The notes: a model not told the origin generated them from the letters alone. A stretch of 39,046 bases of DNA from a virus (IMGVR_UViG_2579778894_000027); one strand, 5' to 3'. Shown: positions 10,472 through 37,786, counted from the first letter of the stretch. Made by a program: numbers and translations.

Positions 10472-11431
10472 ATGAAAATTTACATCGACGACGGCTCCAC
10501 CAACATCAAGCTGGCATGGACTGAGAACGGCGAACGCCGCAACGCCATCAGCCCGAACAGCTTCAAGTCGGAATGGTCTGCGCCGTTCGGTGGCTCGCAG
10601 CCTGCTAACTACATGCTTGATGGCGTGCGCTATGGTTTTGATCCGGTCAGCGATCGCTTTGTCCAGACGACCGACACGCAATACCAGTACAGCGATGTGA
10701 ATGTCATTGCCATTCATCACGCGCTGGTCAAATCAGACATCACGCCACAGGAAGTGGATGTGGTTGTTACCCTGCCACTGAGCGAATATTTCGACACAAA
10801 CGCACAGCCGGACATGGCCAACATCAACCGCAAAAAAGCGAACGTCATGCGCCCGGTGGAGTACCAGAACGGCGAAGCATTCACTATCCGTAACGTACGG
10901 GTTATGCCTGAATCCATTCCGGCTGGCTTTAAAGCACTGGCTGACATGAGTCCGTTTGAATCCCTGCTGATTGTGGATTTGGGCGGAACCACGCTGGATG
11001 TGGCAAAGGTTCAGGGGCAACTGGCAGGTATCAGCCAGGTGTTTTGCGATCCACACGTAGGCGTTTCTCTTATGGCCGATGCCGTACTGTCGGTGATGGC
11101 CACTAACGGTATGCGCACCAGTCACCACATCGCCAATACCATTATCGAACATCGCCATAATGAAGCCTGGCTGCGCCAGCACATCCACAATGACGCGCAT
11201 TACGCCAGCCTGATGGCGGTTATTCGTGAAAAGGAAGAAACACTGAAACAACGCGTGATCCGCGCGCTGGCGGTTTTTTCGGGTTACGGGCGGGTGATGG
11301 TTGTCGGTGGCGGGGCGGAGATTGTGGCACCCGCTATCCGCGAAGCCTGCGGAGTTAATGCGACTTTCATCGCGGACGGGGTGCCACAGTTTGCTCTGGT
11401 TAATGGGCTGTACGCAATGGACAAGGAGTAA
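10472..11431 (+). CDS. parM: ParM/StbA-like actin-type segregation ATPase
   Basis: N-terminus MKIYIDDGSTNIKLAW...ISPNSFK...YQYSDVNVIAIHHAL...IVDLGGTTLD closely parallels plasmid R1 ParM (VFIDDGSTNIKLQW...SPNSF...WQYSDVNVVAVHHAL) as recalled. Confidence 0.85.
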   Translation: MKIYIDDGSTNIKLAWTENGERRNAISPNSFKSEWSAPFGGSQPANYMLDGVRYGFDPVSDRFVQTTDTQYQYSDVNVIAIHHALVKSDITPQEVDVVVTLPLSEYFDTNAQPDMANINRKKANVMRPVEYQNGEAFTIRNVRVMPESIPAGFKALADMSPFESLLIVDLGGTTLDVAKVQGQLAGISQVFCDPHVGVSLMADAVLSVMATNGMRTSHHIANTIIEHRHNEAWLRQHIHNDAHYASLMAVIREKEETLKQRVIRALAVFSGYGRVMVVGGGAEIVAPAIREACGVNATFIADGVPQFALVNGLYAMDKE

Positions 11432-11435
11432 ACCA

Positions 11436-11747
11436 ATGACGACACCAACCAGACGGATAAGTTTCTATCTGAAGCCCGCCGCCGTCAAGAACGAAGGAGA
11501 AGCATGCGCCTGGCTGGACAGCCTTACACCAGAAGCCCGCAAAAGCGGCCAACGCGTGGCTTTTCTGGCCGGGCTGGCACTTCTGAAGACGAATCCGGCA
11601 GAGGCTTACCGACTGGCCGCATGGGCTGATGATGAGATGTTACCTGTGACACAAATCAGCTCAAAAAAGTTTGAAGCACAGTCTGCACCAGTGGCTAAGA
11701 TAACCAGCCAGATGGCTGGGAATATCCGGGCGTTATTTCCTGAGTAA
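11436..11747 (+). CDS. parR: ParR/StbB-like centromere-binding adaptor
   Basis: 103 aa; RRISFYLKPAAVKNEGEACAWLDSLTPEARKSGQRVAFLAGLALLKTNP...RALFPE parallels R1 ParR; AAGGAG SD 7 nt upstream; immediately downstream of parM. Confidence 0.75.
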   Translation: MTTPTRRISFYLKPAAVKNEGEACAWLDSLTPEARKSGQRVAFLAGLALLKTNPAEAYRLAAWADDEMLPVTQISSKKFEAQSAPVAKITSQMAGNIRALFPE

Positions 11748-27040: not shown

Positions 27041-27613
27041 CTATTTATACAATACAACACCGCTCTTTTTAGTTATATATGTGCAGTTCGATGGTATATC
27101 TTTATTTATAAAAGACATTGCACCTATTTTTACATTATCCCCAATTTTACGTGATAATCCAATGATGCAACAATTAGCTCCGATATCAACGTTACTACCA
27201 ATTTTTACTCTTGAACCAGGCATGTCACCATCTATCTGTCCAATGGTAGTATTCTGTCGTAACACCAGATTTTCACCAGCATCAACAGCAAAATGAACAA
27301 CAATTCCAGCATGATGGGGAATTGTTAACCCTTTTCCAATATTTGCGCCCAATCCAATTTCACAACCAAATTTGTTAATTATTTTACTGTTTAACTTTTT
27401 GGCTGCTTTCTTATGTAATTTATTACCATTAATATACATTTCGTTAGCCAACCGCCACCAGAAAAGGAAATTCCGGTTACGCTGTTTTTTCTCTCTTAAA
27501 AGCCTCCAGATATCCATACGTTTCCGCCGAATTACTTCATATTTCCAGAAGTTTTTTAAATTAGTAGAGTTCCCAAATAAAACAAAGTGAATTGCCATTA
27601 AGTAAGACAGCAC
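27041..27613 (-). CDS. Hexapeptide-repeat (left-handed beta-helix) O-acetyltransferase, CysE/WcaB-like; accessory
   Basis: GANIGKGLTIPHHAGIVVHFAVDAGENLVL...RVKIGSNVDIGANCCIIG...IGDNVKIGAMSFI hexapeptide repeats; AT-rich; GTG start at 27613 preceded by AAGGAG (an upstream in-frame GTG/ATG to 27646 is possible). Confidence 0.75.
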   Translation of the reverse strand: MLSYLMAIHFVLFGNSTNLKNFWKYEVIRRKRMDIWRLLREKKQRNRNFLFWWRLANEMYINGNKLHKKAAKKLNSKIINKFGCEIGLGANIGKGLTIPHHAGIVVHFAVDAGENLVLRQNTTIGQIDGDMPGSRVKIGSNVDIGANCCIIGLSRKIGDNVKIGAMSFINKDIPSNCTYITKKSGVVLYK

Positions 27614-27769
27614 GATAATCTCCTTAATTATTATTTCAGACCACACATGTTATAAGGTTAAGAGATTATAAAATCCTGTTGTTTGTTATTCAAAAACAAT
27701 TTTCTGAGAAGGACATACAACAGCAAGTCGCCAGTCACCTTCATCAGGAAATTGGCGACATACGTTAAA

Positions 27770-28264
27770 TCAGAGCAGCCCCTTAACTGAGCTGGTCGCG
27801 CTATTAAGGGATGATGTCACCTTATCTTTGAAGCCGGACAACATATCGCTGAACGATGAGGATTGCAGGCGCTCCCGCAAATCCTCATCACAGCGTTCAA
27901 GGTTCAGTGAAAATTCTATCTTTTTCGCCTTACCGTAGCGATCAAACTCGGAGCGGGTCGTATTCGTTCCGGTCAGGACATACATGCCGTAAATCTGCCC
28001 GACGCCATCAATCAGAGGCCAGGGGCGTCCTGTATACGCCTGCGTGGTCAGCAGCGACAGCGACACTTCGCCACCTGTAATTTCAGGATAAAGCACACCA
28101 GAAAGAACGATGCGATCATCACCTGCACCGATATACTGCCAGCTTGCTGAACGGTTAACGCGTTCATTTTTCACATGCCGCCAGCTTTTGTTTTGCTGTA
28201 ACTGCTGATGCGGCAGCGTGCGCAGCTCAAAAACAAACATGCCATAGATCATCATCATGGCCAT
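27770..28264 (-). CDS. Tail protein U
   Basis: 164 aa; MAMMMIYGMFVFELRTLPHQQ...VLYPEITGG...WPLIDG pattern of P2 gpU family. Confidence 0.75.
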   Translation of the reverse strand: MAMMMIYGMFVFELRTLPHQQLQQNKSWRHVKNERVNRSASWQYIGAGDDRIVLSGVLYPEITGGEVSLSLLTTQAYTGRPWPLIDGVGQIYGMYVLTGTNTTRSEFDRYGKAKKIEFSLNLERCDEDLRERLQSSSFSDMLSGFKDKVTSSLNSATSSVKGLL

Positions 28265-28270
28265 GACTCC

Positions 28271-31114
28271 TCAATCTTTATCGTAAAAACTGCCACGCCC
28301 GGCACGGGCGCGCCGTTCCATTTCTGCCCTGACCATTTCACCGACCAGTTTCGCCAGTTCGCGGGGATTCTGTGTAACAACGTTATGCAGATGAACATGA
28401 ATTTCACCACCAAATCCGGAGGCAACAGGCTCCCGGTTACGGGAAGTTACAGGAACTGATGCCACTGGAGATCGTATGGCCTCCGCCACCGGGCGGGAGC
28501 TGGCCGCAACAACAGGGACCAGCGCCGGAGGCAGCGGAGCCGGGACCACGGGTGTGATATTAATTGCGGGGGCAGGCTTACTGACCTGCGCAATCTTCCG
28601 CTCCTGCCACTCCCCACGAACAGCAAGTGCGCGGGGCAGGTTCTTAAAGACAATATCGCCGGGGCCAATGCGTTTTTTCGTCTCCTCAACCAGCTTACCT
28701 GTGTTATCAGCAATTTTGCTGAGTCTGCGCAGCGTACCGGTATTGCTGTCTGTGAGCGGTTTATTGTCTTTGGGGTTATCACCTCCGGTGCCATTGCCAT
28801 TTTCCACAGGCTTCGGCGGATTGATTTTCGCCAGGTCCCCCTGAAGCAAGGCAACCTTGTCCTGAAGAATGGCCGCACGCTGTGCGTCTTCGATTTTCTT
28901 TCTCGCCCTTTCCGCTTCATCCGGAAGAACACCGAGTTTTTCAAGTATCCACGCCAGCGTATCCAGCAACATTTTTGCAGGCGTCAGAACAAGCTGTAAC
29001 GCGCCACCAAGAACGTTACCGAATATCTCGCCAGCACTGGTACATTTATCCAGCGTTTCCTTGCTGGACTCCATCGGTGACAGCAGCGATTTAAACCAGT
29101 TAAACACCTGGCTGATCCCGCTTCCGATTGCGTCAAAAACAGGGCCAAACCGTTCAAAGGTTTCGCGCAACGGGGCCAGTCGCTCCATAATCCCACTGAA
29201 CACCCCGGCATAAAACGCCTTGATGGGTTCCCAGTATTTCCAGATGAGAACCGCCGCAGCGACAAACGCTGCAGCAATCAACCCGACCGGACTGAACAGC
29301 GCCCCGATAGCGCCTCCCAGTAACGAAACGGAACCCATCACCATTCCCCATAGTGCTGGCAGGACCCTGACAGCATTCATTGATCCGGTCAGGAGAGAAA
29401 AACCAAGACGCAGTTTTGCCAGCGGGCCAGCAAGCACACCAATAGCCAGCGACAACGAGCCAACCGTTGCAGTCATTGCCAGCAACGCACCGCCTGCTAT
29501 CAGTAGCTGGCGCGTCAGTGCCGGATGGGCCTGCGCCAGCGCCGTCACCCTTGATACCACCCGCGTGAGCCACTGCGTGACAGAACGCAGCGGACCGTCA
29601 ATCAGATCTGCAATGCGGATGCGCAACCCTTCCCATGCACTGCCGAGTGATTTCAGATCGCCGTCAAGGTTGTTGGCCATAACCTTTGCTGTGCGTTCAG
29701 CCTCACCGCGCGCGCCTTCAAGTTCTTTTCTCAGTTTGGGTAAGGAACCATCACCCGCTGCATCAACGAGCGCCATAAACGATGTGAAAGCCTCTTCTCC
29801 GGCAATGTCCTTAAAGAACGATACCCGGTCAACTTCCCCGTATTTGCGGGTGGCTTTATAAAGGTCAGCCAGCACATCCTCCATCGGGCGCATTTTGCCG
29901 TTCGCGTCGGAGACTGCCACACCAAGCTCTTTCAGCGCCTCTGCTGCTGCCTTTGGCGGTGATGCCAGACGAGCCAGGCTGGCACGCATTGCCGTCCCGG
30001 CATCACTCCCTCTGATACCCATATTCGCCAGCACGCCCGCCATCGCTGCGGCCTGCTCCAGCGATATTCCCAGCTTACCCGCCACTGGACCTGCATATTT
30101 CATGGTTTCGCCCAGTGCGCGAAGGTCAGTGTTGGTACGGGTAAATGCTGCGGTGAGCGTGTCGCCAACCCGGTCCATCTGGTCAGCAGAAAGGTCGAAC
30201 TGCGTCAGGATATTTGAGCCAATATCCGCCGTCTCGCCGAGATCCATGCCGCCAGCCGTTGCCATGCTCAGCACGCCCGGAAGCGCAGCCTGAATGGCCT
30301 GCGGAGTGAAGCCAGCCATTGCAAGAAATGCCTGCCCACTGGCGGCATCGCCTGCGGTGAACTGCGTTTCAGAGCCAAGTTTTAACGCCTGCTCACGCAG
30401 CGCCTTAAACTGCGGGCTGTTTTTGTCGATTCGCGTCAGTGCCTGAACGCGGGACATCTCTTTGCCGAACCCGATCGCAGGCTGCAAAAAACGCCCGGCA
30501 GCATAGCCGCCCGCCGCTGCCGCACCAATTGCCAGCGCACCACCTGTTTTCAGTTTTCCCGCGGTTTCCTGCACGCGCGAATACCGCTCACGCGCCCGCG
30601 TTACACGCGCAAGCGCCTGCCGTTCGCGTTCAAGCTGGTTGTTGTACTGTTCGGTGCGTCTGATGGCCTGCTGGATGGTGTTATCGCTGCCTGTCAGGGA
30701 AATGCCGTGGCGTTTCAGCTCTCCGCCAAGCTCCCGCATTTTCTGAATTTCCCGTGTGCGCGATTCATTCAGGCGTTCAAGCCGGGTGCTTAACTGCTGC
30801 ATCAGCTTTTGTTGTTTTTCGCTGAGCACTGTACCCGTGCGTTGTAACTGATTAAGGGCGTTAAGCTGGCGTCGTGCTTTCACGATACCCGCATCCGCTT
30901 TACTGACAGCGTCGCGGGCGCGCTCAAATGAACGCGCCTGACGCTCGAGATTTTTGATCGCCCCCTGCGTTCGCTGGATGGAGTCACCAAACTGCCCCAT
31001 CAGGCGGCGGGCGTTTTCGGCAGGCCGGGTCAGCCTGTCAACGGCGCTGAAAGCGACCCGGATATCAAGAGTCTTCATTGTCTGCATTCCCGCTGCGAAG
31101 TGCCGCCCGCTCAC
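28271..31114 (-). CDS. Tail tape measure protein T
   Basis: 947 aa, coiled-coil N-terminal part, Gly/Ala-rich hydrophobic middle, downstream of E/E'. Confidence 0.85.
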   Translation of the reverse strand: MSGRHFAAGMQTMKTLDIRVAFSAVDRLTRPAENARRLMGQFGDSIQRTQGAIKNLERQARSFERARDAVSKADAGIVKARRQLNALNQLQRTGTVLSEKQQKLMQQLSTRLERLNESRTREIQKMRELGGELKRHGISLTGSDNTIQQAIRRTEQYNNQLERERQALARVTRARERYSRVQETAGKLKTGGALAIGAAAAGGYAAGRFLQPAIGFGKEMSRVQALTRIDKNSPQFKALREQALKLGSETQFTAGDAASGQAFLAMAGFTPQAIQAALPGVLSMATAGGMDLGETADIGSNILTQFDLSADQMDRVGDTLTAAFTRTNTDLRALGETMKYAGPVAGKLGISLEQAAAMAGVLANMGIRGSDAGTAMRASLARLASPPKAAAEALKELGVAVSDANGKMRPMEDVLADLYKATRKYGEVDRVSFFKDIAGEEAFTSFMALVDAAGDGSLPKLRKELEGARGEAERTAKVMANNLDGDLKSLGSAWEGLRIRIADLIDGPLRSVTQWLTRVVSRVTALAQAHPALTRQLLIAGGALLAMTATVGSLSLAIGVLAGPLAKLRLGFSLLTGSMNAVRVLPALWGMVMGSVSLLGGAIGALFSPVGLIAAAFVAAAVLIWKYWEPIKAFYAGVFSGIMERLAPLRETFERFGPVFDAIGSGISQVFNWFKSLLSPMESSKETLDKCTSAGEIFGNVLGGALQLVLTPAKMLLDTLAWILEKLGVLPDEAERARKKIEDAQRAAILQDKVALLQGDLAKINPPKPVENGNGTGGDNPKDNKPLTDSNTGTLRRLSKIADNTGKLVEETKKRIGPGDIVFKNLPRALAVRGEWQERKIAQVSKPAPAINITPVVPAPLPPALVPVVAASSRPVAEAIRSPVASVPVTSRNREPVASGFGGEIHVHLHNVVTQNPRELAKLVGEMVRAEMERRARAGRGSFYDKD

Positions 31115-31301
31115 GCCAGCTAACCACTTCGCCGGGCGTCATCATGAAGATTTCGGCGGGCGACCAGTTAAAAATGGCGGCAATATCCGCCACAAAGTCT
31201 TCTATGTGCTCAAAGCACACAACCGTGATCAGGCTTCCGTCGCCTGTTCGTTCTTCCCGCCAGAGTCCGCACCGCTCAAAAAATTTACGGCAACCACACA
31301 T
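31065..31301 (-). CDS. E' -1 frame extension (tail assembly chaperone frameshift product E+E')
   Basis: ORF in -1 frame overlapping 3' end of E; slippery heptamer TTTTTTG at 31277-31283 (minus strand). Confidence 0.55.
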   Translation of the reverse strand: MCGCRKFFERCGLWREERTGDGSLITVVCFEHIEDFVADIAAIFNWSPAEIFMMTPGEVVSWRERAALRSGNADNEDS

Positions 31302-31594
31302 AACTGAATAAAGTCACGGGATGCCATTTTTTTGATCGTCACTTCATCCAGTCGCGGTGATGTCACGCGTGACAGCAGCGTAAACATGGATTCCGCTTTC
31401 AGATTCAGCACATCAGACAGCGACAAATCTCGCAGAGATCCAGCCTGCTCAATAGCCCCGGTGATCTCCACATACGTGATTTTTTCGCCGCCTCGCTCAA
31501 TGGGTTGGGTAAGTTTTACGCCACGCTCACTGGTTTCTTTCACAGTGTCAGTAACTACCGTGTTTTCGGTATCGATGTTTTTCGTCTCTTTCAT
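31229..31594 (-). CDS. Tail assembly chaperone E
   Basis: 121 aa, between tube gene and tape measure. Confidence 0.7.
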   Translation of the reverse strand: MKETKNIDTENTVVTDTVKETSERGVKLTQPIERGGEKITYVEITGAIEQAGSLRDLSLSDVLNLKAESMFTLLSRVTSPRLDEVTIKKMASRDFIQLCVVAVNFLSGADSGGKNEQATEA

Positions 31595-31648
31595 CAGGAA
31601 ACTCCTTTCAGTCAGAGGCGACGCACTGCGCCGCCTGCATATTACTTA

Positions 31649-32161
31649 TCAGCCAAGCCCGAGCGCGGAACGGATGCGATCGGGCACAATGTCCTTGCCG
31701 TCCTTCCGGTAAATGAAGTTCAGCAGGTCAATTTCCCACAACGGGCGATCGTTAACGCTCAGCTTGTAGTAGGTGTTTTTAATGGCGTAAGTGTGTGATG
31801 TGGCTTCGCCCTGTTTGGCTTCCCCCATATCAATTTCCGTCACACGTCCGCGCATTTCGACTTCATACAGGTCGCTTTCTGCATCGGTGTAGTATTCACC
31901 CGCAAAACGCAGCAGCGTGCCGTCAATCGTGCCGCCATACTTAAGGAACAGCTCACGAACTGCGCCCCCCATGACAAAGTTCGCATCAAGGGCGGAGTCG
32001 TCCAGACCGAGATCAATACTTACCGCACCCATCATGCCACCACCCCGGTAGCTGTCGGTTTTGCGCGTCAGTTTGGGCAGAGTGACGGACGTCACCTTAC
32101 CCACTTCGTTTTCACCATCCACAAACAGCGTAAAAAAGCGAAGATGTTTTGGCACAGCCAT
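31649..32161 (-). CDS. Tail tube protein FII
   Basis: 170 aa, position and size. Confidence 0.8.
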   Translation of the reverse strand: MAVPKHLRFFTLFVDGENEVGKVTSVTLPKLTRKTDSYRGGGMMGAVSIDLGLDDSALDANFVMGGAVRELFLKYGGTIDGTLLRFAGEYYTDAESDLYEVEMRGRVTEIDMGEAKQGEATSHTYAIKNTYYKLSVNDRPLWEIDLLNFIYRKDGKDIVPDRIRSALGLG

Positions 32162-33345
32162 CAGGCACCTCCCAGCACCGCAAATGCGGGACCAAAGAAT
32201 TCATCAGTAAACGTCTGGTAAAGCTCCATGTCTTCCAGCGGGGGAACAGGCGTATATTTGTAGCGAATACGCACGCGCCCCTGACGTAAATACGTGGTGC
32301 TGTTATCCACCACGTCATACCAGCACTCCGCGCCAATCAGTTTCCCGGCAGTAACCAGTGAATCCAGTTTTGCCCTGATGGCACTGATAACATCCTTCAC
32401 GTTCGCAGGCGTCAGTGGACTGTCGATGGTTTCAAACTGCGCTTCCGCAATTGAATCAGCCAGCACCTGTGCGGTTCGGGTATACACCTCAAAGATGTAG
32501 GCGTTCGTTTCCGGTGTGCGGTTGCCCCAGAAGCGGAACCCGTTGCGACGAATAATGGTCGTGATTTCTTTGTTGTTGAGGCTGTTGGCATCGCTGTCTT
32601 CGGCCTGCAACGACCAGAACACATGCCTCGACATCCCCAGCACATTTTTAACCGGAACGTTGGACAGTGATTTGTGCCATCCCTGCTCATGGTCGATGTA
32701 CGCACGAAGGCCGCACGCATAGGCAGGCGCGGGGAACGTTTCGTTTTTGCCACTTTTCGGGTTGTAGGCGATGAAGTCTGGCCATAAGAGCATCACCTCA
32801 CGTTCGTTGAATTTCTGGCGGTAGGTAATCGCCTCAGCCATCGTGTTACAGCCGTGACATGAGGCATACACAAACGCGCGCAGTTTACCTGCAATCACGC
32901 ACAGGGATTTCGTTACCGCCTCCGTGTCCAGCTCCGGCGCGGCCAGAATACGCGGACGGTATCCAATGCTTTCATCCTGCTCTGCAACAAGCAGCGCATA
33001 CATCCCCGTATAGCTGCCGTCATCCTCAGAACCACCGATAACCAGTTGATCCTGCGTCTTTCCGTCTTCTTCTTTGTGTTCAGCCACGCGAACGACGATC
33101 ACCTTTGTGCTCACCTGGTCTGCGATGGCCTTAAGCGCACGATAAAGCGTCCCCGTTGTTCCGCATTTTCCCAGCACGTCATTGACGCGGGTCAGCAGTG
33201 TGGGCTTGTTCAGCGGGAACAGCTTCGCGTCCGCATCATCCGCCGTTGCCACGATACCGATAACGCTGGAATCAACATCGTTAATCGCTGTTACCAGGTC
33301 GGTATTTTCCGTAACACGGGCACCATGAAAACGAGTTTCACTCAT
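32161..33345 (-). CDS. Contractile tail sheath protein FI
   Basis: 394 aa, position and size; ATGA-coupled to FII. Confidence 0.85.
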   Translation of the reverse strand: MSETRFHGARVTENTDLVTAINDVDSSVIGIVATADDADAKLFPLNKPTLLTRVNDVLGKCGTTGTLYRALKAIADQVSTKVIVVRVAEHKEEDGKTQDQLVIGGSEDDGSYTGMYALLVAEQDESIGYRPRILAAPELDTEAVTKSLCVIAGKLRAFVYASCHGCNTMAEAITYRQKFNEREVMLLWPDFIAYNPKSGKNETFPAPAYACGLRAYIDHEQGWHKSLSNVPVKNVLGMSRHVFWSLQAEDSDANSLNNKEITTIIRRNGFRFWGNRTPETNAYIFEVYTRTAQVLADSIAEAQFETIDSPLTPANVKDVISAIRAKLDSLVTAGKLIGAECWYDVVDNSTTYLRQGRVRIRYKYTPVPPLEDMELYQTFTDEFFGPAFAVLGGA

Positions 33346-33502
33346 AGCTTCAGCCCCTTGTATCCGTTAAATGATTCGGCAACAATCATCACCCACCACG
33401 CGCGTAATCTCACCCCTGCGCCGTTCTCCCGATTCGGCGACAACAAAAAGCAGTAACCCCTTCCGCACGCACATGCGACCATGCCGCACAGGGAGGGAAC
33501 AG

Positions 33503-34612
33503 ATGACCGATACCACCATGCAATTGCTCAGTCAGGGCACAGACCCCGTGAAAATGCCGGATTTGGATATTCTCGCGGAGGGTAAAACGCTGTCCGGCGT
33601 GGCAGAGCGCCTGATGAACCTGTCACTGACCGACAACCGGGGATTTGAAGCGGACCAGCTCACCATCACGCTGGATGATGCGGATGGTCAGTTGCAGCTA
33701 CCGCCACGGGGCGCGCGCCTGACGGTTCTCATTGGCTGGAAAGGAGAACCGCTGACAGAAAAAGGCACTTACATTGTTGATGAAATCGCTCACGAAGGAC
33801 CGCCGGACAGGCTGACTGTTTCAGCCAGAAGCGCAGATTTTCGGGATGAATTTAACGTTAAACGTGAAGTATCCTGGCATGATGTGACCGTTGAGCGCGT
33901 GGTATCCGCCATCGCTCATCGGTACGGCCTGAAACCGCAAATCAGCGAAATGCTGATGGATATCGAAATCGACCACGCCGACCAGACCGAAGAAAGCGAC
34001 ATGTCCTTCCTTACGCGCATGGCGGAAATGCTGGGCGCAATCACTACGGTAAAAAGCGGTAATCTGTTATTCATCATGCCAGGCGGTGGCGTGAACGCAC
34101 AGGGCCAGCCGTTGCCCTCGTTCGCCATCACGCGCAGCAGTGGCGATCGCCATCAGTTCCGCATTGCTGACCGCGAAGCGTATACGGGGGTACGCGCTTA
34201 CTGGCTTGATCTTAATTACGGGAAAAAGAAAAAAGTCAGCGTGAAACGCCGCAAACCGCCAAAACCCAAAAAGGAGAAAAGCAGCAGCCGTGAAGGTGAT
34301 TATATGGAAGGCGCAGAAGGCAATGTGTTTGTGTTACGCAAGACTTATCAGAACGAGCAGGCAGCAAGACGCGCAGCGGCGGCAAAGTGGCAGCAGCTAC
34401 AACGCGGAGCCGCATCATTTTCCATCACGCTGGCGCGTGGACGTGCAGAACTCTACCCCGAAATGCATGGCACGGTAACAGGATTTAAAAGCGAGATTGA
34501 TAATCAGGACTGGATTATTGCAAAAGCCGAGCACACTATTGATGACAGTGGCTTTACCACACAGCTTGAGCTTGAAGCAAAAATCCCGGAATGGATAGCG
34601 GAAACAGAATGA
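33503..34612 (+). CDS. Late control gene D protein (tail/baseplate hub, GPD family)
   Basis: Start at ATG 33503 with SD gggaggg; 369 aa. Confidence 0.75.
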   Translation: MTDTTMQLLSQGTDPVKMPDLDILAEGKTLSGVAERLMNLSLTDNRGFEADQLTITLDDADGQLQLPPRGARLTVLIGWKGEPLTEKGTYIVDEIAHEGPPDRLTVSARSADFRDEFNVKREVSWHDVTVERVVSAIAHRYGLKPQISEMLMDIEIDHADQTEESDMSFLTRMAEMLGAITTVKSGNLLFIMPGGGVNAQGQPLPSFAITRSSGDRHQFRIADREAYTGVRAYWLDLNYGKKKKVSVKRRKPPKPKKEKSSSREGDYMEGAEGNVFVLRKTYQNEQAARRAAAAKWQQLQRGAASFSITLARGRAELYPEMHGTVTGFKSEIDNQDWIIAKAEHTIDDSGFTTQLELEAKIPEWIAETE

Positions 34613-35026
34613 GCAAATTAGATGTATTGACTCAAACCAGAACTGACACACTCACAGCACAGTGCCAGACCCAATCTGGCAGCCCGCTTTGTGCCTAGAG
34701 CAGGTGTTGCTTATGTAACAGTTAATCCACGGATAGTGGTCATGAATGCTGGTTGAAGTTGTATTGCCATGAATGGTCAATTAGGGACTCACTTATTATC
34801 GCGTGCTCACCATTGATGGGTAAGATCATGCATTTCGGCTACTGTACTTCGCGAATCCTCCACACACAGGCAACACCTGATTTAAGAACAGAGGGAGATG
34901 ATGACGCAAGGAAGATTTATTATCGTGCATGTGGCAGATGATCTTTTAGCTGCCGGAGTGATAAATTACACCTATTTTCGATAAGTGTTTTTGTTATAGA
35001 ACATTAATTTCGTGGGAAACAATAAA

Positions 35027-36151
35027 GTGAAATTAGGAAGAAATGATAAGTGCTGGTGTAATTCAGGACTTAAGTATAAAAAGTGCCATCTTGGTCGAGA
35101 CCGTGAAACTCCGGTATCCAAAGCCGAGGCACTGAAATTTTCAAAGTCTCTCTCGCAGAGAAAGGCATGTTATGCGCCAGCATCCATGCACGAAGATTGT
35201 GATAAACGCATCGTTCAGGCGCATACGATATCTAAGAGCAGTAGCCTTAAGGCGATCGCCGACTCCAGCAATCACGTCATGGGGGTGATAATGAACTTAG
35301 CAAGCCTGATGAGAAACAACGGAAAATGGCTTCCCGAGAAGATCGGTATCAATCAGGCATCCACTTTTACAGGATTTTGTGCAGTTCATGACAGAATCTT
35401 GTTTTCATGCCTAGAGAACGAAAAATTTACAGGCACGGACGAGCAGTGCTTTGCCTTAATGTTTCGTTCATTGTCTAAAGAAATTTACGCCAAAGAAGGG
35501 GGAGTGCTATCTTCCGATTTTGCTAAAAATGCCGATAAAGGAAAGCTACAAGTTGAACAGTATTATATTCAGAAATTAATCGACCAGCACCAAAGTGGCT
35601 TAAATGCAGCAATAATTGAATTAAATCATCTTAAAACTAGCCTCGACCGCATCCTACTTAGCAGGCAATTTTCAGAAATTGAAAGTGTTATCTTCACTTT
35701 TGCAGAGCCTTTACCAATTGTAGTTTCGTCAATTCTTTCACCGGAGAGGGATTTCGATGGGACCAAAATTCAGGATTTGAGCGATCTTACAGTGTCGGCG
35801 GAACAAGTATGTTTCAATGCTTTTTCCTGCGGAGGTAAGGGATATGTAGTGTTCAGTTGGCTGAGAACTTCAACAATTATCAGACGTTTTATACGGACAC
35901 TAATTAAGATCCCGGCTAACAGGATGTTCAATACCCTTCTGTATTTTTTCTTCACAAAGGCCGAAAATACATATTCATCCCCTGAGTGGTGGGACAGGCT
36001 CAGTGATAAACAGCGAGAGAATATCGGCAACATGATTATGTCAGGGGTTGAATTTTTTGGCAGACCTACATCACAGGTTGATCATTCCGTTGATTATAAC
36101 GCCGCTGCACTTGAAGAGATAACATGCAGCAACAACGAAATTTGCAGCTGA
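35027..36151 (+). CDS. SEC-C-motif (zinc-binding) protein of unknown function; AT-rich accessory gene
   Basis: N-terminal GRNDKCWCNSGLKYKKCH matches SEC-C metal-binding motif (C-x-C-x8-C-H); remainder unrecognised; strongly AT-rich; start could be GTG 35012 or 35027. Confidence 0.6.
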   Translation: MKLGRNDKCWCNSGLKYKKCHLGRDRETPVSKAEALKFSKSLSQRKACYAPASMHEDCDKRIVQAHTISKSSSLKAIADSSNHVMGVIMNLASLMRNNGKWLPEKIGINQASTFTGFCAVHDRILFSCLENEKFTGTDEQCFALMFRSLSKEIYAKEGGVLSSDFAKNADKGKLQVEQYYIQKLIDQHQSGLNAAIIELNHLKTSLDRILLSRQFSEIESVIFTFAEPLPIVVSSILSPERDFDGTKIQDLSDLTVSAEQVCFNAFSCGGKGYVVFSWLRTSTIIRRFIRTLIKIPANRMFNTLLYFFFTKAENTYSSPEWWDRLSDKQRENIGNMIMSGVEFFGRPTSQVDHSVDYNAAALEEITCSNNEICS

Positions 36152-36440
36152 ATGTTTACATGCTGTTAGAAAAAGCGGGCTGAACAATCATTTCGGGATT
36201 GTAACAGATAAGATGGCACTGCCCGCTTGCTTCCCGATATGTACCTCAGCCAATAAACTTATGTAAGCAACCGATTTCCATTTATGCGGAGGTTATCAAA
36301 GTTGTTGGAGTTGCGAACTTCCGCTCTTCGCACAAAGCGTACCGCTAGGTTTGATTGTATTCTGGCTGCGCAAACTGTCAGTTGGAGTCTGAGCTATTAC
36401 AACTTAGAATAGCGGCAGCACCACGTTAAGGGAGGTCGCT

Positions 36441-36701
36441 ATGTTCCGTTGTCCGCTTTGTGGCGCATCTGCCCGAATCCGCACCAGTCGTCCGGAAAAC
36501 GATTCAAACACTGTGCGGCAAAAGTATTACCAGTGTAACAACCTGGAATGCGGCGTATGCTTCTCAACACTGGAAGCTTTCCATAAATTCACATCAAAAC
36601 ACGCCTCCGGCGTTCACTCTTCGGAAGGTATCCCGTGGCATGAGCTACCAGCTTCACACAGGGGAAACAATCAGATGAGTTTGCCTTTACCTCAGAATTA
36701 A
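36441..36701 (+). CDS. ogr: Ogr/Delta-family zinc-finger late-gene transcriptional activator
   Basis: MFRCPLCGASARIRTSR...YYQCNNLECGVCFSTLEAF parallels P2 Ogr (MFHCPLCQHAAHARTSR...YHQCQNVNCSATF). Confidence 0.9.
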   Translation: MFRCPLCGASARIRTSRPENDSNTVRQKYYQCNNLECGVCFSTLEAFHKFTSKHASGVHSSEGIPWHELPASHRGNNQMSLPLPQN

Positions 36702-36892
36702 CAGGCAGAATTGCCGGAGTAACAAAAAAACGATAGATTACCCGCGGGTGCCTTTCGGCTGATGGTCGGAGGGAATACCCGAAGGCCGGATGTGGAAAGG
36801 CCCCGGAAAACATTTCTGTTTAACCGAGGCCCTAACATATCTACCTTAAGCAAGTGATAGGTTAGCGCCTCTCCAACAAAGGAGCAAGCGCT

Positions 36893-37033
36893 ATGTCGCA
36901 AAAATCGCTTACGGCCATCACGTTCTGCGTGACGGTAATCCTCATCATCTGGATGCTACACGGTTCGCTGTGTGAAATACGGATGAGCTTCTGGGGAGCG
37001 GAGTTTGCGGCGTTCTTACAGTGTAAGCAGTAA
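36893..37033 (+). CDS. Hok/Gef-family type I toxin (46 aa)
   Basis: MSQKSLTAITFCVTVILIIWMLHGSLCEIRMSFWGAEFAAFLQCKQ: single TM helix plus hallmark SLCEIR and AAFL.CK motifs of Hok proteins; AAGGAG SD; below ORF-track size cut-off. Confidence 0.75.
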   Translation: MSQKSLTAITFCVTVILIIWMLHGSLCEIRMSFWGAEFAAFLQCKQ

Positions 37034-37221: not shown

Positions 37222-37503
37222 TTACTCAGCATTCTCCTGCTTCCATTGCCGGATCATTTCATCGGTAACATCACCCTCATAACATACCACGTCATACCCT
37301 CCATTACGGCTATATGCACTGCGTCCACCACATCTACTACCATTCCTTGCATGATTATAAGGACACGCACAATTGCCTGGATAAGATTCAATGGATTCTT
37401 TAATTATTTCTTTTTTGATCTGAGCATCAGACTTTCCTGTTGCTGCATATCCACTAAAAGATACTAAACAAAGGCAGATTGCCATTAATAAACCACATCG
37501 CAT
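37222..37503 (-). CDS. Small secreted Cys-rich protein of unknown function
   Basis: Predicted signal peptide MRCGLLMAICLCLVSFSGYAATG; 5 Cys in mature part (NCACPYN...RCGG...VVCYEG); start uncertain (37503 or 37485). Confidence 0.5.
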   Translation of the reverse strand: MRCGLLMAICLCLVSFSGYAATGKSDAQIKKEIIKESIESYPGNCACPYNHARNGSRCGGRSAYSRNGGYDVVCYEGDVTDEMIRQWKQENAE

Positions 37504-37786
37504 ACCGATACACTCTATTACTAACCAATCATAGCCCACATCATAAAATCGAGATGAGGAGCACAATACCTTTAACAAGAAGGTGTCATAACGATAATAT
37601 GTCGTGCAATTCATCAAAAAAAAGATCTATATCAAAGAGATAGAACTCTTATCAGTGCTTCAGACATCGGCATTCGAGGCAGCAGAAAAACAGTAAATCT
37701 GACGAATTTGCCTTTTCCCAAGATGTTGTCAGATTAAAAAGATAGATTAGCGCAGGTACCTCTGTTGGGGGATTGCAGGAGGAAAA

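Follow-up and report, generated by a model that had tools for sequence, protein, structure and literature searches.

Rugutis is a single-gene anti-phage system of 359 aa that is encoded on the Lactococcus plasmid pUCCL633A (Grafakou et al., 2024, PMC11381338). The protein carries an N-terminal SEC-C motif, and its high-confidence fold is absent from the PDB (PMC11381338). It acts after DNA injection and behaves abortive-infection-like in lysis-in-broth assays, with protection at low multiplicity of infection and collapse or stall of the culture at high multiplicity (PMC11381338). Phage c2 escapes from Rugutis when the ATPase domain of its large terminase is mutated, and the toxicity of c2 terminase expression is higher in cells that have Rugutis (Mosterd et al., 2025, PMC12184496). 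The terminase escape alleles are still toxic if over-expressed, and Rugutis was assayed from a high-copy vector (PMC12184496). Hence, direct terminase sensing is not proven even for Rugutis itself. Published proteobacterial members with experimental data were not found in our literature search, nor did it return anything relevant on the source accession or on SEC-C proteins in connection with P2. We describe here a gene of a P2-like E. coli prophage whose product is, judged by sequence comparison, a distant and nearly full-length member of the Rugutis family.

The window, by which we mean the whole stretch of 39,046 nucleotides that was analysed, is a P2-like prophage whose integration site adjoins tRNA-Leu/Cys/Gly and pgsA. 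An earlier note, made from the sequence alone, had pointed out an ORF of about 375 aa with an N-terminal SEC-C knuckle, more AT-rich than the phage backbone and flanked by roughly 400 and 290 bp of noncoding DNA. All of this stood up to measurement. The ORF (Table 1) encodes 379 aa and matches Pfam SEC-C at residues 10-27 (PF02810, E 2e-08, 34 bits against a cutoff of 20), and the noncoding flanks are 399 and 289 bp long. GC content is 0.418 in the ORF and 0.425 in the insert, compared to 0.539 in D and 0.541 in the late region (0.42 vs 0.54), and GC3 is 0.42 in the ORF compared to 0.57. The first residues of the 379-aa protein are MGNNKVKLGRNDKCWCNSGLKYKKCH and its N-terminus contains GRNDKCWCNSGLKYKKCH. 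The start codon is uncertain, because an alternative GTG at 35027, giving 374 aa with the N-terminus MKLGRND..., is preceded by GGGA about 9 nt upstream and suits most homologues, which begin with MK(L/I)GRN. On the plus strand upstream of the ORF there is no consensus sigma-70 site, and a scan for promoters and terminators returned nothing convincing. Comparison with an 87%-identical copy yields a dN/dS of 0.13; thus, 35012-36151 is a real gene under purifying selection. Of 5426 complete E. coli genomes, 92 have an intact gene (80 copies at >=99% identity, 12 at 87%), in each case within accessory DNA, and carriers include O157:H7, O26 and O111 strains.

Table 1. Features at the D-ogr junction of the window, 5' to 3'.
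Feature	Position	Strand	Basis
P2 gene D homologue (late control/tail protein), left flank	33371-34612	+	Pfam Phage_GPD E 7e-17
Left target-site duplication AATTAGA	34616-34622	.	empty site in L018
Left terminal inverted repeat TGTATTGACTCAAACCAGAACTGACA	34623-34648	+	pattern search
Upstream noncoding DNA, presumed promoter region	34649-35011	+	blastn vs L002, L016
Gene of the predicted Rugutis-family SEC-C protein	35012-36151	+	379 aa, GTG start
SEC-C zinc-knuckle motif, residues 10-27, RNDKCWCNSGLKYKKCHL	35039-35092	+	Pfam PF02810
Most conserved part of the body, residues 50-136	35159-35419	+	homologue alignments
Downstream noncoding DNA in cassette	36152-36375	+	
Right terminal inverted repeat, reverse complement TGTAATAGCTCAGACTCCAACTGACA	36376-36401	-	pattern search
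Right target-site duplication ACTTAGA	36402-36408	.	empty site in L018
ogr (late-gene activator), right flank	36441-36701	+	Pfam Ogr_Delta E 5e-14

The relationship to Rugutis was first suggested by the literature on SEC-C proteins and phage defence, and a tblastn search of the window protein against plasmids then hit the 359-aa SEC-C CDS of pUCCL633A (WP_137016746.1, 5e-27). BLASTP aligns residues 5-347 with residues 3-336 of Rugutis (pUCCL633_059) at 2e-37 and 26% identity, and hhalign reports a probability of 100% and an E value of 7.5e-40 over 321 aligned columns. Both matches point to a distant, full-length family member, and the protein appears to be an additional member of a named and experimentally supported family. 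At 90% clustering we recover 296 homologues of about 372 aa, mostly from Gammaproteobacteria and nearly all with the N-terminal motif, and an exhaustive profile search puts the family at no fewer than 7771 cluster representatives (E<=1e-3). The body of the protein had been called unrecognisable. This is correct for Pfam, NCBIfam, PHROGs and PADLOC, in which neither the protein nor 34 homologues match anything beyond the SEC-C motif; aligned directly with the published sequence of Rugutis, however, the body is recognisable. PADLOC-DB v2.0.0 is older than the Rugutis paper, and its E2, E1-E2 and PDC-S12 models match residues 4-50 only. A SEC-C motif also forms the end, at model positions of about 165-217, of several CBASS E2-type models and of one model for a candidate single-gene defence; thus, the motif recurs at the termini of unrelated defence proteins.

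All 34 aligned homologues (34/34) contain the SEC-C motif, and a sequence-profile search of the PDB with the family profile returns only the zinc peptides of SecA (1ozb, 1sx0, 1tm6) and YchJ. The AlphaFold model is confident (pLDDT 88) and has no counterpart fold in the PDB. Conservation is highest in the zinc knuckle and in residues 50-136, a region with 20 invariant columns in the per-region analysis and with C53, C63, H71, G112, C123, H126, D127 and E135 among its invariant residues. In an alignment of 14 sequences from Gamma- and Alphaproteobacteria and Firmicutes, which includes members without SEC-C, the residues G112, F122, C123, H126, D127, F131, E135, R152 and E157 are invariant, and C53, C63, H71, D247, E318 and N319 are invariant except in a truncated sequence. 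Variability is highest in helix B (180-217), in helices 288-316 and in the C-terminal tail. This distribution is consistent with residues 50-136 being a metal-binding, probably catalytic core, accompanied by variable recognition surfaces and an accessory SEC-C module. Plasmid-borne members in Bradyrhizobium (L014 2908-3903) and Priestia (L015 3019-4044) have no SEC-C motif and keep the C..C..AH/GFCxxHD core; therefore, the zinc knuckle is an optional module. Several assignments for the conserved residues were rejected. An HNH/His-Me finger nuclease was considered for the C..C..AH/GFCxxHD core, but neither profile nor fold comparison reveals a beta-beta-alpha-metal motif, and readings as HD-phosphohydrolase, deaminase or papain-like Cys-His enzyme find no profile or fold support. 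Kinship with DUF4238, a single-gene defence of P2 hotspots, likewise found no support, with no Pfam or PADLOC match even at E<=10.

Across about 15 genomic contexts no conserved partner gene recurs beside the homologues, which are stand-alone genes located almost always in prophages, islands and plasmids. The Salmonella copy, 86% identical, lies in an integrase/AlpA/DUF927 island (L002) next to an AAA_15 and DUF4435 pair (L002 13548-15694); this AAA_15/AAA_21 ATPase followed by DUF4435 is the domain pair of PARIS. A Klebsiella homologue is found at a prophage edge, one from Pseudomonas in an island with a zeta toxin and an integrase, and one from Salinicola in a toxin-antitoxin-rich island with RES-Xre and HigBA. 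Plasmid homologues occur in Shinella, Sphingobium, Enterococcus (near AbiH), Priestia and Bradyrhizobium, and their neighbours include VapBC, AbiH or a restriction enzyme. Mobile DNA thus prevails over housekeeping operons, the exception being a Psychrobacter homologue between parC and a hydrolase that lacks mobile-element marks. Only 2 of 50,697 phage records contain a homologue.

We consider it probable that the gene encodes an anti-phage protein of the Rugutis family that works alone, in the manner of abortive infection, and that the prophage carries it as cargo by which the lysogen is guarded against other phages. The lack of a conserved partner, the residence in mobile elements and the presence of other defence-type genes at the same site in sister prophages all speak for this function, and it is homology to Rugutis together with this context that suggests defence by the E. 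coli member. Against it count the missing consensus promoter, the GTG start and the weak ribosome-binding site, the possibility that such AT-rich DNA may be silenced, the parC-hydrolase homologue and the scarcity in phage records. The earlier note had proposed a candidate for an uncharacterised defence or host-manipulation function. The single-gene defence candidate survives through the Rugutis homology, and "uncharacterised" still fits the effector mechanism, but it no longer fits the family, which has a name, a phenotype and a trigger.

How such a protein might act can be outlined as follows. In the lysogen it would be made from its own promoter and would stay inactive until, at a late stage of infection by a foreign phage, the large terminase of that phage or its packaging activity switched it on. 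The likeliest recognition surfaces would be the variable helical hairpin (143-217) and the C-terminal tail. The residues C53, C63, H71, C123, H126, D127 and E135, together with R152, E157, D247 and E318-N319, may constitute a metal-dependent toxic centre whose reaction would bring the cell to a stop before progeny are released. The SEC-C knuckle would be an accessory zinc/iron module for tethering or regulation, accessory because some distant homologues do without it. Such a scheme would demand that the terminase of P2 itself does not trigger the protein.

The frequent occurrence among toxin-antitoxin genes allows another reading, in which the gene is a selfish stabilising or toxin-like passenger that aids the cassette or prophage by post-segregational killing or growth control and affects phages only as a by-product. 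The hok/sok module just downstream and the RES-Xre, HigBA, VapBC, Fst toxin and zeta toxin genes seen next to homologues elsewhere would fit this. We regard it as unlikely, since no conserved antitoxin-like partner adjoins the gene, a single 375-aa protein is under strong purifying selection, and the protection by Rugutis is phage-specific with escape mutations in a phage gene (PMC12184496). Markedly less probable is a counter-defence or host-takeover factor that serves the lytic growth of P2 and not the lysogen. The gene is co-oriented with the late-phase genes D and ogr between which it lies, and mobile-element hotspots also bear anti-defence genes (PMC13586616), but near-identical or homologous copies reside in plasmids and non-phage islands, where a role in P2 lytic growth makes no sense, the homologue Rugutis is a defence protein, and sister prophages have GmrSD or PIN genes at the same spot. 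Anti-phage defence of the lysogen remains our preferred reading.

RefSeq names the protein "YecA family protein". The CxCxSGxKYKxCH zinc/iron knuckle is indeed common to this protein, the SecA C-terminal metal-binding domain, YecA and YchJ, but the likeness ends with these 20 residues: the motif is placed differently, and the remainder of the protein is dissimilar. Membership in the YecA family was rejected: instead of a full-length match, NCBIfam PRK10396 gives 17.9 bits against a cutoff of 149, confined to residues 4-27, and by this profile comparison the label rests solely on the motif. A housekeeping SEC-C protein of the YecA/YchJ/SecA-tail kind, working in protein export or at the ribosome, is accordingly a reading that we give hardly any credence, for although the motif is genuine, resembles the SecA zinc peptides and earned the protein its RefSeq label, it is N-terminal here and not C-terminal, nothing in the body resembles YecA, YchJ or SecA, and the gene is restricted to accessory DNA of few E. 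coli genomes.

Mobile insertion cassettes (MICs), for example MIC231 and the qnrS2 cassette, carry passenger genes between IS-type inverted repeats, have no transposase and are mobilised in trans. A qnrS2 example is found in PMC5444012. At the D-ogr junction we find a cassette of 1,779 bp (34623-36401) with 26-nt terminal inverted repeats and a 7-bp target duplication. In the related prophage L018, D is followed by ogr with a gap of 40 bp; therefore, the gene is a true insertion, placed, as had been proposed, where P2 has D directly followed by ogr. The empty site reads TGA-GCAACTTAGAATAG...ATG with a single ACTTAGA, and the AATTAGA/ACTTAGA copies flanking the cassette are 6/7 identical. Directly inside these duplications the inverted repeats begin with TGT...ACA. 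The pattern ATTAGCTCAGACN5CTGACA has exactly two matches in the window, 34626-34648 (+) and 36376-36398 (-), with 0.00 expected by chance. A 36-nt inverted repeat (I2) was less informative than these true terminal repeats and was dropped. The cassette contains no transposase, and the SEC-C ORF is its sole content.

The same ends recur elsewhere. Pairs were counted as cassettes only if they had <=3 mismatches, positional homology or an exact duplication; a pair with 4 mismatches in one repeat is expected by chance about 0.09 times per 7 kb. The repeat pair is also present at 5 of 6 other occupied D-ogr loci, the exception being the more degenerate PIN locus, and the empty D-ogr site has no terminal repeats. 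Window positions 34619-36401 recur at 83% identity in the RepL/H-NS island of ECOR29 (L016 6731-8362), where the cassette copy has near-perfect repeats and flanks unrelated to the window; the segment from 34706 onward accompanies the gene in the Salmonella island (L002, blastn). An empty site was not found at the ECOR29 locus, only an internal deletion derivative in E. coli M8 (L027). Of the cassette, M8 retains the left repeat and about 290 bp, but neither the gene nor the right repeat; the missing segment equals L016 7024-8507, and outside it the flanks of the two strains agree at 99.8-99.9% identity. In a scan of species-representative genomes the repeat occurs in at least 120 loci, many of them at contig ends. 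Seven of these loci hold an autonomous 1.2-kb element with exact 7-bp duplications and a 346-aa transposase that scores 288 bits in NCBIfam IS481 (cutoff 224). Further repeat pairs with exact 7-bp duplications enclose non-transposase cargo, including ThsB-like TIR genes (PADLOC 1e-122) and a PDC-M09A candidate. The Collimonas and Pantoea cassettes (L036 2943-3888, L071 5766-7033), with IS481-type ends and exact 7-bp duplications, each encode a ThsB-like TIR protein of 230 aa and contain no ThsA partner. With its matching IS481 ends and 7-bp duplication, the insert is thus best described as a MIC-like derivative of the IS481 family, and on the evidence of these ends a cassette that lacks a transposase and descends from an IS481-family insertion sequence appears to have brought the gene into the P2-like prophage. 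This gives the supposed horizontal acquisition of the cargo a physical vehicle, which is the least expected result of our analysis. A literature search found no paper that links IS481-type cassettes to anti-phage genes, and the vehicle may be new to the literature.

The D homologue, labelled late control D protein in related genomes, probably starts downstream of 33371. Its 3' end is common to 1139 E. coli genomes, with the homology breaking off about 10 nt past the stop codon; of the 1129 genomes with a common ogr junction, at least 265 keep the right cassette end. Among six sampled sister prophages the junction is empty or contains GmrSD, PIN_12, DUF3800, a 229-aa protein of unknown function or a 221-aa one, the gene of which adjoins an IS1 element. 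Thus, the D-ogr junction is a variable cargo site that holds defence-type genes in sister prophages. All occupants have the same duplication, which may stem either from a single ancestral insertion with later cargo swapping or from repeated insertion at a preferred target.

Other parts of the prophage also deserve mention. The A-Q (old/tin) slot (10472-11747) contains ParM/StbA (Pfam E 1e-80, 3e-68) and Plasmid_stab_B; for a P2-like phage that is integrated, such a plasmid-type partition module is an unusual cargo. In the Z/fun slot, between G and U, a gene at 27041-27646 (-) encodes a 201-aa hexapeptide-repeat acetyltransferase-like protein, annotated as serine O-acetyltransferase in related genomes; its GC content of 0.34 is the lowest in the window. 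Neither of these two slots gave a PADLOC match. The FI-FII-E-T-U tail block (27770-33345, -) is on the strand opposite to D (+) and thereby inverted with respect to canonical P2, an arrangement found in all sampled E. coli relatives. Directly after ogr lies hok/sok (36746-37033), which is present in all sister prophages sampled, with a Hok/Gef ORF at 36893-37033 (Pfam 3.7e-07) and a match to sok RNA at 36746-36903 (44.8 bits, E 3.8e-08) that stays under the Rfam gathering score of 59; this match downstream of ogr was the only result of the Rfam scan. Between hok and tRNA-Leu, an AT-rich ORF at 37222-37617 (-) matches phrog_27544 (E 1.5e-57), and its product has a signal-peptide-like N-terminus and a Cys-rich C-terminal part.

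These results connect a gene that is mislabelled as "YecA family" and occurs in 92 of the 5426 complete E. coli genomes with a defence family that has been validated experimentally. In E. coli, whose phages are well studied, terminase sensing by Rugutis proteins and the role of the Cys/His core would be tractable. The D-ogr junction is documented as a slot for defence cargo, and transposase-less cassettes of the IS481 type suggest themselves as a vehicle by which single-gene defences could hop among phages, islands and plasmids. Should this be general, the cassette ends would be usable as a search handle for new defence genes.

Compared with MICs, the window cassette likewise has IS-type terminal inverted repeats without an internal transposase. 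The passengers, however, are of the defence type (Rugutis-like, ThsB-like TIR, PDC-M09A, GmrSD, PIN_12 and DUF3800), and while MICs are mobilised in trans, trans mobility of the window cassette is putative. Tentatively, and with somewhat less than even confidence, we would go further and propose an undescribed family of IS481-derived, transposase-less cassettes, with ends TGTATTAGCTCAGAC..CTGACA and a 7-bp duplication, that ferry the single defence genes just named between prophage slots, islands and plasmids across Proteobacteria; the D-ogr "hotspot" would then be a transposon landing site whose cargo was subsequently swapped. A separate part of the same proposal would be that phage terminase activates the Rugutis body, which would represent a novel enzyme fold containing a Cys/His metal centre.

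Rugutis and the window protein are both encoded by single genes, measure about 360-380 aa and have SEC-C at the N-terminus, and in both the invariant C..C..AH, GFCxxHD..F..E, R152, E157 and E318-N319 are found. For neither predicted fold is there a match in the PDB, and both genes reside on mobile DNA with IS elements and toxins nearby. There are also differences. Identity is just 26%, and therefore the trigger and even the output may differ. The host is Gram-negative and the carrier a P2-like prophage instead of a dairy plasmid, the zinc knuckle reads CWC...CH in the window protein and CFC...CC in Rugutis, and Rugutis lacks H88 and N114, two residues that do not vary within the gammaproteobacterial branch. 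With regard to location, the hotspots old/tin and Z/fun of P2-like phages are likewise variable slots occupied by alternative defence systems of one or few genes (Rousset et al., 2022, PMC9122126), and further sources on P2-like hotspots exist (Moura de Sousa et al., 2026, PMC13586616; iLund4u preprint, 10.1101/2024.10.15.618418). The D-ogr slot is not named among these hotspots, with 0 occurrences of "ogr" in the main texts of those papers, and it differs from them in that its occupants lie between inverted repeats of the transposon type and have a target duplication.
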